Assembly: GCA_049972095.1 (NCBI GenBank)
Contig: JBMFKQ010000009.1
Coordinates: 1 to 46,058 of the forward strand
Direction of reading: 5' to 3'
From: Elusimicrobiales bacterium
GTDB taxonomy: Bacteria > Elusimicrobiota > Elusimicrobia > Elusimicrobiales > UBA9959
Length of the DNA: 46,058 nucleotides
The stretch's first letter is position 1. Each line of letters begins with the position of its first letter. This document shows, in pieces, positions 15,589-24,615 of the stretch. A program made the translations under genes and the position numbers. Under the pieces are notes generated by a model that had not been told where the DNA came from, did no database searches, and worked only from the letters and a program-made list of their open reading frames with translations.

Positions 15589-16311
15589 TTAGAAACTCAA
15601 CCTCATATTCCAAATAGGATGTATTACAACTACCCCATCAGGATAAAAATTAAAACCTAACTCAAACCATTTCCCATACCAGCTACTCTTTATTGCAATC
15701 ATCTCATTTTTTATATCATAGTTTATCTGTAGTGCAAAATATCTATCTATATCTCTCATAAGCTCTATACCAAAATATACATAAACAGCATTATTATCAA
15801 ACCTAAAATTGCTAAGTTCCACCCCAAGAAGCTCATGTTTCTTATAGCTTGAGAGTTTAAGCTCTGCTGAAGAGTATGAATACCTTACACCATAGAAGTT
15901 CCTTATCCTTGAGGTTATCGAATTTGAGGCAGTAATTCCTGTGTGGTAACCCCAAAAGGAAAGATTTTCAACCTCATCACTCAACTTAGCAAATGTTTTG
16001 CCTGCTACAAAATACTCAAAACCTATATTCAAATCCATCTGAGGAAATTCAGATTCAGGATGTATCCTCCTTGAAAAAGATGGTGTTATAAATGTTATTG
16101 GCAGCAATGATGGAAAAAGTGAACAGCCTAAAACCGTATTATAACCAGACTTGATTGGAAGAGATGTTTCCGAATCAGACTTTATCTCTCTGAAAAAAAG
16201 AGAAGGTTCAGCTACAACTCTTGCAACAACCCTTCTCGCTGCACTCTCAAAATCAGCAAAAGCAGGCTTGACAAAAAAACAAAAAAGAGTTAAGAAAATC
16301 AATCTTTCCAT
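15589..16311 (-). CDS. Hypothetical exported protein, probable outer-membrane beta-barrel
   Basis: Signal peptide MERLIFLTLFCFFVKPAFA; amphipathic strands; terminal WNMRLSF. Confidence 0.65.
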   Translation of the reverse strand: MERLIFLTLFCFFVKPAFADFESAARRVVARVVAEPSLFFREIKSDSETSLPIKSGYNTVLGCSLFPSLLPITFITPSFSRRIHPESEFPQMDLNIGFEYFVAGKTFAKLSDEVENLSFWGYHTGITASNSITSRIRNFYGVRYSYSSAELKLSSYKKHELLGVELSNFRFDNNAVYVYFGIELMRDIDRYFALQINYDIKNEMIAIKSSWYGKWFELGFNFYPDGVVVIHPIWNMRLSF

Positions 16312-17945
16312 CTTTTAATCGCCTCGTAAATGTATTCGGACGATGAATAAATACTCTGACCACTAACAACCACATCTATATTGTCTGAAATAGAGTTATA
16401 GCCAACCTCGGAAGGCTTGCCAGATAAATCCTGCCTTAGATTGATGATACCTTCAAAAAAATTTTTTCTAACCATATCAGAAATACTATCAAATCCTGTC
16501 TCTATATCTTTCTTTTTCCTTAAACTACCTTGCGGTGAGATCAAATAGCTTTCTGAAATGAGCCAAAAAGGCTGTGATGAGTTTGCTCCTTTAATATACT
16601 TATCGGCTCTTATTCTATAGATATCCCCATCAAAATAATATCCACCATCAGTTCTAAGCCCCCACAGAGCACCTGTTATATCACCTCCATCACTCTTTCT
16701 GACAAGATCGCCAGTTGGGGCTGACGGATTTTTCTCCACAAAGTTATAATTAATTATATCTGAAAGAGAGGATTTTGGGATCTTCCCTGTTATTATAACC
16801 TCTCTGTCTCGTTCATTAGTGCTTTGCTCAACCCCTACTGACTCAGTATTGTTTATAAGCTCAGCTCTGGAAGAAATATATTTATATGCCTCAGCAACAA
16901 AAAAGGATGATGCTGATGTTATGTTTGCTGCAACAGAAATCATCCATAAGGGATTGACAGAAGGGTCAGCAAAAAAGGATGGCAGATTTTCAATCCTGGA
17001 AGGTAGGGGTTTTTGAAACTCAAAACTCACAGCAAAAACATCAATCCTATTTGAAATGGCACCACCAAGATATCGCGAGGAAGGGATCTGTTGAGAAAAT
17101 GGGGTTGAGTATGTATAGTTAATGTAATAAGGTCTTTTGGTTATATTAACAAACTGTATCTGATGCGGTGTAGGTCTTAGGATCCTCTGCTCAACTCTTA
17201 CTGTATTTCCATGAATGTCTTTTAATGTTTTACCACTTTCAAAATCACTTGCTTTTTCCCTTATAGCATCATCAGAATATCTTTGAGTCATAAGCCGTGA
17301 ATAGGAGCTAAAAACAGAAAGTCTTTTTATTTTATCAAACCATGTTGTTGAACTTTTATATGAAAAAGAAAGAAGCTCCTTTTCAGTTTTTTCATCAATC
17401 AGTTTTTTTGAATAAGGCCTTTGAGGATTTTCTACCGCAAATCTCATCCCTTGGGATATTACAAACCTTCTCTCACCGCTTTTGTGAGGTAGAAGATAAT
17501 CAAACACACACTCACCAATAGCCACTGCAATCTCACTTCTTCCTGAAAGATCCGATGATATAAAAGAAAGCATTTTTCTTGATGCAAAAGATGAACTTAC
17601 CGTTTTTAAAACAAAAAGTGAACCCTTTGGAAACTCCACATCAAATCTCCCCTTTCCATAAACAAGGCCAAGTGATACATAATATTCTGAAACAGCCTCA
17701 ACCTCAATAGCAGACTCTTCATAAAGCATTATCTCTGAATTTTTGTTAACATTCAGAAAAGCAGAGGATTTCTCATCAAGCTTAATAGCACTTCCTGAAG
17801 GGAGTGTCAAAGGAAGCTCGGAGATTTTTTTCCATTCGGAAAGTGAATTTTCTCTATAATATGCTGTTCCTGATAAATCAATAAGAACAACCTGAGATAA
17901 AACAACATTTGGAAAAAACAAAAAAAAGAATATCAATACCACCAT
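16299..17945 (-). CDS. Exported FecR-domain protein with an unknown C-terminal region
   Basis: Signal peptide, then a FecR-like beta pattern (LSGTAYYR..W..L.LPSGSAIKL....A.L...SEIML.E.S.I, L.LVYG, FVLKT, SEIAVAIGE). Confidence 0.65.
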   Translation of the reverse strand: MVVLIFFFLFFPNVVLSQVVLIDLSGTAYYRENSLSEWKKISELPLTLPSGSAIKLDEKSSAFLNVNKNSEIMLYEESAIEVEAVSEYYVSLGLVYGKGRFDVEFPKGSLFVLKTVSSSFASRKMLSFISSDLSGRSEIAVAIGECVFDYLLPHKSGERRFVISQGMRFAVENPQRPYSKKLIDEKTEKELLSFSYKSSTTWFDKIKRLSVFSSYSRLMTQRYSDDAIREKASDFESGKTLKDIHGNTVRVEQRILRPTPHQIQFVNITKRPYYINYTYSTPFSQQIPSSRYLGGAISNRIDVFAVSFEFQKPLPSRIENLPSFFADPSVNPLWMISVAANITSASSFFVAEAYKYISSRAELINNTESVGVEQSTNERDREVIITGKIPKSSLSDIINYNFVEKNPSAPTGDLVRKSDGGDITGALWGLRTDGGYYFDGDIYRIRADKYIKGANSSQPFWLISESYLISPQGSLRKKKDIETGFDSISDMVRKNFFEGIINLRQDLSGKPSEVGYNSISDNIDVVVSGQSIYSSSEYIYEAIKRWKD

Positions 17946-17974
17946 TCCCTCAAAGTTTTTAAGAAAGATTTATA

Positions 17975-18047
17975 AGCCGAGACCGGGACTTGAACCCGGG
18001 ACCTACTCCTTACCATGGAGTTGCTCTACCATCTGAGCTATCTCGGC
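17975..18047 (-). tRNA. tRNA-Thr(GGT)
   Basis: GCCGAGATAGCTCAGATGGTAGAGCAACTCCATGGTAAGGAGTAGGTCCCGGGTTCAAGTCCCGGTCTCGGCT folds as a cloverleaf; anticodon GGT; CCA not encoded. Confidence 0.96.
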
Positions 18048-18154
18048 AATCTAAAAGAGAGCAAGCTAATTCAAATCTAACAGTTAATTAAAAAGCAAAT
18101 TAAAATACTCTAATTCCAAAATAAACAAACTCTTATAAACACCATCCTTGAAGC

Positions 18155-18322
18155 ACCAGCAAGCGGGCGATGGGAATCGCCTACAAATAAATTTTGCTCA
18201 CCGCAAAATTTTTCGCAAGTCCCCCCTCGGCAAACTGAATCGCATATGTTTGCCTGCGGGCTTTCGATTCCCACGAAATGCTTTCGCATTTCTTAGTACC
18301 AGCAAGCGGGCGATGGGAATCG
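18155..18322. repeat. 25-bp direct repeat of the tRNA-Gly 3' end enclosing a structured 118-bp insert
   Basis: accagcaagcgggcgatgggaatcg at 18155-18179 and 18298-18322; internal inverted copy of the T-arm at 18263-18274; three hairpins. Confidence 0.9.
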
Positions 18323-18375
18323 AACCCACGTTCTCTGCTTGGAAGGCAGAAGTTCTACCATTGAACTACGCCCGC
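18305..18375 (-). tRNA. tRNA-Gly(TCC)
   Basis: GCGGGCGTAGTTCAATGGTAGAACTTCTGCCTTCCAAGCAGAGAACGTGGGTTCGATTCCCATCGCCCGCT; anticodon TCC; CCA not encoded. Confidence 0.96.
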
Positions 18376-18386
18376 ATATAAGTAAA

Positions 18387-18415
18387 ATTATAATATTTTA
18401 AGCATTTTTAATCAA
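18387..18415 (-). promoter_or_regulatory. Promoter of tRNA-Gly (and probably tRNA-Thr)
   Basis: TTGATT (18415-18410), 17-nt spacer, TATAAT (18392-18387), 11 nt upstream of the tRNA. Confidence 0.7.
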
Positions 18416-18487
18416 CAAACGATAAAAAATCTTATCAATCTCTTATGACAATCCATCTTTTTTTCTACAGATTGATGGCAAGTTTAA

Positions 18488-19945
18488 TTAGAAATTATTA
18501 TTTAAAACCTTTTCAAAAAGCCTGATATACTCTGAAACAGATTTACTCCATGAAAAGTCCCAATTCATTGCATTTCTCACAATAGTATTCCAAACCTCCC
18601 TTGATGAATAAAGTGAGATTATATGCCCAAGAATTGAACTTAAACCAGATACATCATTTTTGGGAATGACAAAACCATTTGAAGAAACAGGATCATCAGG
18701 ATAGTAGAAAATTGTATCCTTTAACCCACCAACTTGACTGACAACCGGCAAAGAACCATAACGGCACGCTATCATCTGAGAAAGCCCGCATGGCTCAAAC
18801 CTTGAAGGCATCAGAAATATATCCGATGAGGCATATATCTTGTGAGCAATCTCTTCATTAAAACAATTCATAAAAACAAAACTTCCAGCATACTTTTTTG
18901 CAAGAGAGTTAAGCTTTTCGGCTATATCAGCTGAACCTGTGCCAAGAATCACAAACTGAAATTTACCTATAAACTCCTCACATACATCTATTATGATATC
19001 TATGCCTTTCTGAACATCAAGCCTCGTAACACATCCTGCAAGGATCACATTTTTATCTTGTTTAAGTCCAAACTCTTTCTGAAAAGCCTTCTTACATAAA
19101 GGCTTTATCCTCCAGAAATTTTTTGAATCATATTCACGATATATAAAATTATCGGTTGCAGGATTCCATATATCTATATCAATACCGTTAAGTATTCCAA
19201 AAAGTCGTGAGGCTTTCGCTCTCAACACTCCCTCCATTCCCCTTCCAAAAAAAGGATCTTCAGTTATCTCTTTTGCATAGCTTGGACTAACTGTTGTAAC
19301 AACATCAGCATAGTTTATCCCAGCTTTTAAAAAATTAACTCCACCGTAATACTCAAGCTTGTCAGGAGTAAAATCTAACCATGAAAAACCTGCTTTTATA
19401 AATGTATCTCTGCTAAAAAAACCCTGATATGCTATGTTGTGGATTGTGAATATGGTTTTTGTTTTTACAAAAAAGGCATCGATTCTATATAATGTTTTAA
19501 GATATGCTGGAAGAAGTCCAGTTTGCCAGTCATGCGACCATATTATATCAGGCTTAAAACCCATAAACTTGCACCCTTCAAGAACAGCTCTTTGAAAAAA
19601 TATAAACCTCTCATCATTATCAAGATAATCTCCAGCTTCATTCCTATAAAGACCTGGTCTGTCAAAATATTTGGGATTATCAACAAAATAAACCCTAACC
19701 TTTCCCCAATCAACACTATATAGGTTTGCATCATCCAATCTGTCTGCAACTGGGATTAAGAAGCTGCCACTAAGCTTTTTGGGAGAAAAAGCAGTTTTAC
19801 CTATATCACGGTATCTTGGAAGAAACAGAATAAGCTCAATATCCTTTTCTCTTGAAAGATAATTAGCTACACACCCGACAACATCAGCAAGACCTCCTGT
19901 TTTACAGAAAGGAAATGCTTCGGATGCAGCAATAACTATTTTCAT
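18488..19945 (-). CDS. glgA: Glycogen synthase
   Basis: KTGGLADV, HDWQT, FTIHNIAYQG, TVSPSYAKEI, MPSRFEPCGLSQM, VGGLKDT. Confidence 0.97.
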   Translation of the reverse strand: MKIVIAASEAFPFCKTGGLADVVGCVANYLSREKDIELILFLPRYRDIGKTAFSPKKLSGSFLIPVADRLDDANLYSVDWGKVRVYFVDNPKYFDRPGLYRNEAGDYLDNDERFIFFQRAVLEGCKFMGFKPDIIWSHDWQTGLLPAYLKTLYRIDAFFVKTKTIFTIHNIAYQGFFSRDTFIKAGFSWLDFTPDKLEYYGGVNFLKAGINYADVVTTVSPSYAKEITEDPFFGRGMEGVLRAKASRLFGILNGIDIDIWNPATDNFIYREYDSKNFWRIKPLCKKAFQKEFGLKQDKNVILAGCVTRLDVQKGIDIIIDVCEEFIGKFQFVILGTGSADIAEKLNSLAKKYAGSFVFMNCFNEEIAHKIYASSDIFLMPSRFEPCGLSQMIACRYGSLPVVSQVGGLKDTIFYYPDDPVSSNGFVIPKNDVSGLSSILGHIISLYSSREVWNTIVRNAMNWDFSWSKSVSEYIRLFEKVLNNNF

Positions 19946-24079: not shown

Positions 24080-24151
24080 GCGCCCGTAGCTCAGTGGTAG
24101 AGCATCCGCCTTTTAAGCGGGTGGCCGCGCGTTCGAGTCGCGCCGGGCGCA
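24080..24151 (+). tRNA. tRNA-Lys(TTT)
   Basis: GCGCCCGTAGCTCAGTGGTAGAGCATCCGCCTTTTAAGCGGGTGGCCGCGCGTTCGAGTCGCGCCGGGCGCA; acceptor stem GCGCCCG/CGGGCGC; anticodon TTT; CCA not encoded. Confidence 0.95.
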
Positions 24152-24165
24152 AAAAAAGAGGAATA

Positions 24166-24615
24166 GTGAAAAAGAGAAAAAATTTTACCCTTATCGAGCT
24201 TCTTGTAGTTGTCATAATAATATCAACACTTGTATCCATTGCAACACCTACATATTTTAGAGTAGTTGAAAGATTTAGACTTGTTGAGGCAACAACAGTG
24301 ATTAATGATATAAGAAAAGCAGAAGAGGAAGTCCTTATTAGGAAGGGTAGATACTCTGACAACTTCTCTGAACTATATATTGAGATATATGACAAAAACA
24401 ATCAGCTATGCTCTGGTAAAACATGTGAGTTGAAGTATTTTATTATCCAGATAAGGCTAATAACACCTACATCTTATCAGATACTTGCACAGAGAAAAAG
24501 TGATGTAACCCCACCACCACAAAGATACAGTCCTAACTACATATACTTTTATGATTCAAAAACCCGCTCTTACCTATGTAATGATGCTAACTGTGCAAAG
24601 GACTTTCTTATCTAA
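24166..24615 (+). CDS. Type IV pilin (PilE-like) protein
   Basis: GTG start after GAGGA; basic leader KKRKN then FTLIELLVVVIIISTLVSIATPTY; four Cys in the C-terminal domain. Confidence 0.9.
   Translation: MKKRKNFTLIELLVVVIIISTLVSIATPTYFRVVERFRLVEATTVINDIRKAEEEVLIRKGRYSDNFSELYIEIYDKNNQLCSGKTCELKYFIIQIRLITPTSYQILAQRKSDVTPPPQRYSPNYIYFYDSKTRSYLCNDANCAKDFLI

Follow-up and report, generated by a model that had tools for sequence, protein, structure and literature searches.

What is a 143-bp structured element doing directly behind a tRNA gene whose 3' end it repeats? The question is raised by the tRNA-Gly locus in a stretch of 46,058 nucleotides from an Elusimicrobiales bacterium, referred to here as the window. 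A direct repeat of 28 nt with one mismatch lies at 18152-18179 and 18295-18322 with a spacing of 143, and its perfect portion (18155-18179/18298-18322) comprises 25 bp: positions 56-73 of tRNA-Gly(TCC) (18 nt) plus 7 nt of trailer. Exact 25-bp repeats spaced 60-300 bp apart occur at 16 places in the 1.44-Mb genome, ten of which are on four contigs with CRISPR arrays. The 118-bp core between the repeats has 45% GC, compared with 25% and 21% in the flanks. The repeat and the richer core thus agree with a preliminary description made from the letters, as do its three stems (18275-18292, 18229-18254, and 18189-18211), and the helix it had drawn around the latter two (18274-18265 with 18179-18170) is part of the MFE fold. 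From upstream to downstream of the tRNA gene, the locus contains the following features.

18488..19945, minus strand: glycogen synthase gene glgA, upstream, context only (TIGR02095 above cut-off)
18387..18415, minus strand: sigma-70-like promoter match upstream of tRNA-Gly, 10/12, a consensus match only (5 sites found vs 2.7 expected)
18305..18375, minus strand: host tRNA-Gly(TCC), intact, CCA not encoded (ARAGORN; Rfam RF00005, 73.3 bits)
18293..18304, minus strand: spacer of the unit, starting at 18304, the first base past tRNA-Gly
18275..18292, minus strand: hairpin P1, 7 bp, with the apex GCGAAAGC, a GNRA loop and also a canonical DNA mini-hairpin
18263..18274, minus strand: antisense to host tRNA positions 54-64, host-specific across the family
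18224..18262, minus strand: arm P3, with a short CCC/GGG helix, a GCA/GA internal loop, and the 7-bp stem 18229-18254
18180..18219, minus strand: arm P4, a long helix of up to 17 pairs with a GGTGA loop, containing the 9-bp stem 18189-18211
18162..18179, minus strand: copy of host tRNA positions 56-73
18152..18161, minus strand: opening 10 nt of another, truncated unit (spacer copy, one mismatch)
17975..18047, minus strand: tRNA-Thr(GGT), downstream, without a unit (ARAGORN)

No terminator-like sites were found in 17800-18700. The start of a truncated unit, as at 18152..18161, is also present behind tRNA-Gly(CCC) and tRNA-Arg(GCG) of the same genome. Immediately past tRNA-Thr is an ORF of 548 aa (16299-17945) for which no NCBIfam family was found at E <= 1e-5. 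Elsewhere in the window, the longest reading of a pilin-like ORF (24094-24615) begins within tRNA-Lys(TTT), and its real start is probably further on.

The unit is a structurally conserved, widespread repeat without genes that stands behind many tRNA genes. In this genome all 8 BLAST matches to the unit lie behind tRNA genes, and the core follows 7 of 42 tRNA genes: Gly(TCC) has the window unit, Arg(GCG) two tandem units, Asn(GTT) a decayed copy, Ser(CGA) a unit with no final copy, Ser(GGA) a unit cut at the contig end, and Gly(CCC) and Ser(TGA) have stubs. The final copies, where present, match the local tRNA and not tRNA-Gly. Unit number varies by locus, from one plus 10 nt in the window to two at C21 and three behind Leu(CAG) in the relative G010, and in contigs of one public run the summed depth, about 9-10 on either side, climbs to 29-66 within the unit, as expected of a multi-copy repeat. 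A different array in the same genome, at G000:C4:71083-71603, reaches the end of its contig and comprises 2.3 copies of an AT-rich unit of 222 bp; each holds the last 36 nt of tRNA-Ala(GGC), is unlike the window family, and could be an assembly effect.

Among 61 genomes, BLAST found genuine copies in six; the matches in G040, G052, G055, and G060 were short chance or unrelated ones with no tRNA nearby, so the carriers number six and not ten. The same layout follows tRNA-Gly(TCC) in the relatives G019 and G027. A covariance model of the repeat (R1) has matches in 23 of 80 genomes at family level and in 44 of 151 at phylum level, both lower bounds since only 21-40 candidates were scored per genome, with at least 32 matches in G010 and 36 in G019. 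A motif drawn from distant members recovers at least 120 stretches in named genomes. Among the 80 matches listed, 44 are labelled Elusimicrobiota and 36 are labelled as other groups, chiefly Patescibacteria; a tRNA lies upstream in 37/44 and 30/36 of these matches, and the antisense matches at 10 or more of 11 positions in 36/37 and 26/30, respectively. R1 itself matches 27 of the 36 stretches listed from outside Elusimicrobiota at E <= 0.1, with a best score of 67.5 bits. A Patescibacteria unit behind tRNA-Cys (L246) and an Elusimicrobiota unit behind tRNA-Asp (L082) are alike, by a count made by eye, in 101 of 122 aligned columns; provided the binning is correct, such likeness behind different tRNAs suggests passage from one phylum to the other. 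The family also follows tmRNA genes; copies are often at contig ends, and many are stubs or interrupted. The preliminary description had allowed that the locus might be a one-off or belong to a known Rfam family. The BLAST search and the scan of tRNA loci show instead that the layout recurs behind many tRNA types, tmRNA, and in other genomes, and in Rfam only tRNA scores above gathering, both in the window stretch and in six family loci.

In each unit the end of the tRNA ahead of it is represented twice more, once in each orientation. The copy was examined behind the 79 tRNA and tmRNA genes, among the loci retrieved, for which positions 58-69 (12 nt) recur exactly within 330 nt; genes without such a recurrence were excluded. 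Its left edge is at position 56 in 53 and at 57 in 23 of these, and its right end is at 73, giving a copied end of 17-18 nt in 76 of 79 units. For the antisense, 75 units were used after removal of four rows without an anchor. Over positions 54-64 it agrees with its own host in 10.44 of 11 positions on average, compared with 8.63 +/- 0.11 for permuted hosts (maximum 9.05 in 5000 permutations), which bears out the earlier claim that the unit copies its host tRNA in both orientations. The antisense is perfect over positions 54-63 in 63 of 75 units, and T-loop position 59 is matched in 74 of 75 units vs 42% when hosts are permuted. The antisense also extends two bases past the copy: both tmRNA units, which are from one genus, have a C opposite the non-standard G55, a base outside the copy, and in 22 units with A at position 56 of the copy the antisense retains G. 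The stretch beyond the copy could alternatively be a constant structural motif, and the tracking of tmRNA comes from two related cases. In 39 more distant units there is a second antisense segment, to the acceptor strand, with P1 between it and the first (4.72 vs 3.23 nt, 0/1000); the corresponding values for the window's subgroup are 2.86 vs 2.60 nt (11/1000), largely generic, including the spacer at 18293..18304. Extra letters occur in the tRNA-end copies of L333, L342, L356, and L074 at about the junction of T-stem and acceptor, opposite P1 in the predicted fold; those in the first three favour a fold in cis over a clean target duplication.

The preliminary description recognised no named family, yet the tRNA-linked repeats (TLRs) of E. 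coli (tyrT/RtT, serX, and proK) have the same layout, although their sequences are unmatched. TLRs have been known since 1978, with 22 units at ten E. coli loci, and their hallmark is an end of 18-19 bp identical to the upstream tRNA or rRNA 3' end; the source gives them no known function and suggests that the repeat is an RNase E signal (PMC8144298). The unit used here for comparison is the 178-bp repeat of tyrT/tyrV with rttR (RtT RNA, Rfam RF00391), for which the mode of action is given as not known in a recent preprint (10.1101/2024.07.17.603846). In E. coli K-12, the tyrT, tyrV, and serX units have an exact internal antisense of 8-10 nt and copies from position 58, while the proK copy also starts at 58; in the lysine units the copy begins at 59 and the antisense is no more than partial. 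Common to E. coli TLRs and the window family are a position directly behind the tRNA, tandem units (one to three in E. coli), no need of an ORF, a copy of the host 3' end, and an antisense to T-arm or acceptor followed by a GA-rich linker and hairpins. The differences are in detail: the antisense covers positions 59-68 in tyrT and 59-66 in serX but 54-64 in the window family, and the copy starts at 58/59 in E. coli TLRs but at 56/57 here. A further repeat, of the 5' half of the T-arm (a split T-loop), is present in the tyrT, serX, and proK units and absent from the window family. The latter adds P1 ahead of the T-arm antisense, which in distant members splits an antisense of 17-20 nt in two, and unlike E. 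coli TLRs it also follows tmRNA genes.

By sequence the two remain separate. RF00391, with a 45-bit cut-off, has no match at E <= 1 in any of five carrier genomes, with E. coli as a positive control, and the Rfam search found no RtT match in the window stretch or in six family loci. In the other direction, R1 has no match in E. coli NC_000913.3, none in the lysT, serX, and proK loci, and a best score of 6.1 bits in the tyrT locus, outside the repeats. The window unit lies directly behind a tRNA with an 18-nt identical end, and the one to three units seen per locus are within the range of one to five given for TLRs; since it carries the TLR hallmark and RF00391 is unmatched, it is placed in the TLR class and not within RF00391. 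A search of mostly open-access literature found neither this family nor a host-tracking antisense of TLRs described, although Rudd 1999 may describe the antisense of E. coli.

On balance, the unit is likely a non-autonomous mobile element of the TLR type that spreads between tRNA genes by means of a trans-acting enzyme. The preliminary description had left the choice between a miniature non-autonomous tRNA-targeting element and a structured RNA. That the sequence is repeated, without genes, host-copying, covarying, and missing from an empty site in a congener is consistent with the former, and from these features we infer its mobility.

The main competitor is an RNA that serves the host: a trailer transcribed with the tRNA, resembling the top half of a tRNA through pairing of the antisense with the copied end, freed by tRNA-processing nucleases, and acting as a small RNA or modulating tRNA maturation by pairing with the T-arm, with conversion keeping the cores alike. 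Much of the folding evidence fits such an RNA. On the tRNA strand the window unit is predicted to form a branched structure with an MFE of -59 kcal/mol (z -4.76, with 0/200 shuffles as low), vs -45.8 kcal/mol for the opposite strand as RNA, and when the tRNA is included the MFE structure pairs the antisense with the tRNA's own T-arm instead of the copied end. Covariation is strong. The covariance check proposed earlier was carried out on 28 aligned units with a structure set by hand (P1, the closing helix, a two-part P3, and a long P4), and 24 of 43 pairs vary on both sides, compared with 0/500 shuffles and 6-10 pairs in slid controls, although these sequences are kin and the changes are not independent events. 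In the hand-named structure 91.7% of cells pair, RNAalifold gives the same helices, and both-side changes affect 6/8 pairs of P1 and 8/17 of P4, where 95% of cells are paired. The promoter-like site upstream without a terminator and the reach of the antisense to the acceptor strand in distant units point the same way, and in E. coli three TLRs linked to rRNA operons are RNAs produced by processing and bound by Hfq and CsrA (PMC8144298).

The loops, however, speak against an RNA, since most are neither GNRA nor UNCG. In 123 distinct units the hairpin loops include 19 GNA closed by C-G, 35 GNYA, 46 GNNNA, 9 GNRA, and 1 UNCG, while shuffles give 1.6, 1.8, 5.1, 3.2, and 0.8, respectively; all of these counts are drawn from related sequences. 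Among 195 loops closed by C-G, 101 are of the form G...A and only 5 of these are GNRA. Terminator-like hairpins of the same loci (63 in number) have 9 GNRA, 8 GNNNA, and no GNYA or GNA loops. Motifs resembling mini-hairpins number 236 on the tRNA strand vs 16 on the other. Mini-hairpins of the type GCGNAGC/GCGNNAGC are described as far more stable as DNA than as RNA and as found at single-strand origins (PMC13037366). The P1 apex of the window carries this motif, although it is also GNRA. Closure by G...A stabilises RNA hairpin loops as well. The unit folds well under both the RNA and the DNA parameter sets, and G-U vs A-C combinations (56 vs 24 cells, 9 vs 12 pairs) have no clear asymmetry. 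Taken as they stand, loops of the DNA mini-hairpin type are a hint that the fold may form in single-stranded DNA.

A host-serving RNA would also sit poorly with the patchy distribution, in which no unit is seen at 35 of 42 tRNA genes here or in 57 of 80 genomes of the family (40 candidates at most being scored in each), with the many stubs and interrupted copies, and with similar units in distant phyla. The trailer RNA is thus a possible but rather unlikely explanation, and the mobile element is favoured over it.

If the unit moves, it would need an enzyme acting in trans, and no dedicated mobiliser was found. The preliminary description had called for a co-occurring recombinase, HUH nuclease, or reverse transcriptase, but this genome has only XerC- and XerD-like recombinases and no reverse transcriptase or Y1 transposase. 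Each of the five carrier genomes (95-98% complete) has two tyrosine recombinases, which here are the XerD- and XerC-like pair, and reverse transcriptase (PF00078) is found in none of the five, with positive controls. The Y1 transposase (PF01797) is found in four of five genomes and not in this one; among 11 Y1 loci of relatives, one is near a unit, beyond the far side of the tRNA. RAYT-like genes of relatives were considered as the mobiliser and set aside, their flanks being their own unrelated palindromes. IS110 (PF02371) is present in one of five genomes and absent from this one, while PF04986 was found in none of the five, a search in which no control matched either. Cas1 is found in three of five genomes and not in this one, whose assembly nevertheless has CRISPR arrays on four small contigs (C44, C46, C54, and C58). 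The long Cas1 of two relatives was likewise rejected, as it belongs to cas1-cas2-cas4-like CRISPR operons (two of four Cas1 loci examined). No match to the family was found in phages, plasmids, or viral contigs (IMG/VR). In 42 metagenome loci, 35 of which have a tRNA within 300 nt upstream, there is no ORF-sized insert between the antisense and a good copy, and no larger ORF-bearing version was found.

Several known mobile systems share part of this description. REP and REPIN sequences are non-autonomous, hairpin-rich, and strand-biased repeats thought to move as single-stranded DNA, and the window family is like them in the first three respects; unlike the REP/REPIN-RAYT system, it has strict tRNA linkage and host-matched ends, and no RAYT flanked by it was found in this genome or among the 11 Y1 loci of relatives. 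Casposons insert at tRNA 3' ends with a long target duplication, but the window family has neither terminal inverted repeats nor genes, and no Cas1 match was found in this genome. The islands of tyrosine integrases also double a tRNA 3' end and leave the gene intact. Unlike them, the window family is 143 bp long, has no integrase or cargo, uses one core for many tRNA ends, and has an internal antisense.

The comparison with islands bears on a second alternative, in which the unit is what remains of one, its attL and attR having been joined after loss of the cargo. A copy of 17-18 nt of a tRNA 3' end is reportedly the usual attR signature (Williams 2002), which the unit resembles, and G010 has an island between tRNA-Ser(CGA) and its unit. 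This insert (L049:550-2570 on G010:C32) is 2.2 kb long, displaces the unit, and holds two ORFs of 268 aa (methyltransferase-like by eye) and 274 aa. As it precedes a whole unit, the unit is separate from the island. Integrases are usually site-specific, yet one conserved core serves many different tRNA ends; neither integrase nor cargo lies between antisense and copy in the 42 metagenome loci, and this genome has no island-type integrase. The attL/attR analogy of the preliminary description is therefore weak, and an integrative remnant is improbable.

The units also exchange material among themselves. Each of 42 cores from seven genomes has its nearest counterpart behind a different tRNA, 30 within their own genome and 12 in another; in no case is it at the matching tRNA of a second genome. 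Cores that are 95-100% alike bear different antisense segments, and in G019 a distal copy behind Leu(CAA) (L039) has the end and flank of Leu(GAG). The pattern of nearest cores and this foreign end indicate that cores are exchanged between loci. Five distal units of G019 (L039, L019, L029, L036, and L038) have a common downstream family of REP-like palindromes and decayed or foreign tRNA ends, a sign of copying between loci. By contrast with the cores, the spacer and P1 track the tRNA locus (0.72 in 9 orthologous pairs vs 0.61), which fits long vertical residence plus conversion and not recent jumping. A second hairpin-rich type of unit lies within the antisense segment in G019 (L002:1680-1910, L029, L032, L035-L039, L061, L070, and L072); it is sometimes tandem, has its own P3- and P4-like arms, and has similar units in other genera.

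The empty site asked for earlier does exist, as no unit separates glyT from thrT in G001, a congener whose genome is 60% complete, or in G008 and G017 (g8). Despite a likeness by eye, the window trailer past the distal copy is no closer to the G001 trailer than shuffles are (1334/2000); the trailers are too diverged to distinguish gain from loss, and G001 may have lost a unit rather than the window gained one. Joints that skip the unit were not found in contigs of two runs, which drop rare variants; the empty site is seen only in other species. The partial units at which arrays end differ in length. Of six clean arrays, all have a perfect first copy and four a perfect last one, too few for polarity, and this decay test was noisy, with false matches in three or four of nine rows.

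Such ragged arrays invite a third alternative, that the family is a neutral by-product of slippage that doubles tRNA ends, of template switching at the hairpin-prone T-arm that writes and corrects the antisense, and of conversion that spreads the core. The correction of imperfect palindromes by template switching is established and would explain host matching without selection. Against this, the helices unrelated to the tRNA (P1, P3, and P4) covary too, 76 of 79 units share a fixed left edge of the copy (56/57), and a single core family occurs across phyla. This account is largely refuted as a complete explanation, and we give it even less credence than the remnant, although it may still supply the step that rewrites the antisense. 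Lastly, a chimeric join of repeats in assembly is scarcely credible: copies are often at contig ends and no contig of two runs spans the whole stretch, but contigs of the public run X1, which may be the source sample, cover 17999-18181, 18177-18229, 18200-18282, and 18253-18322 and so tile both junctions of the unit, and tRNA-Gly(TCC) of G019 and G027 is followed by the same layout.

For the mobile element, the following course can be proposed. A landing unit would leave the tRNA gene whole and double its last 17-18 bases. As the part that addresses the target, the antisense would pair either to the duplicated end or to the T-arm of the host. The fold would probably act as single-stranded DNA, a proposal made because of the loops of the DNA mini-hairpin type. 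Resident units could then be gained or lost in tandem through recombination between the direct repeats, and gene conversion would swap cores between loci while the host-specific ends remain. The unit would be transcribed together with the tRNA and removed in processing, and so be cheap to carry.

A bolder and distinctly doubtful version of this proposal is a self-retargeting mini-element that moves as folded single-stranded DNA, whose antisense guide is rewritten for each tRNA or tmRNA target while a housekeeping or wandering enzyme exchanges the strands. Such an element would have crossed between Elusimicrobiota and Patescibacteria, and the RtT/TLRs of E. coli would be distant members of its superfamily.

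New here are the quantified host tracking, the swapping of cores, the empty site in a congener, the match across phyla, and the hint of DNA mini-hairpins. The family offers what E. coli lacks: diverged copies that number well over a hundred and stand behind most types of tRNA, a structure that covariation pins down, a clear-cut boundary at T-loop position 56/57, and an antisense that follows the host base by base. With it, one can test how an antisense comes to match its host, and whether it is RNA or single-stranded DNA in which the fold is active. Should the antisense prove to be a targeting guide, insertion into the most used integration sites of bacteria would be steered in a new way.
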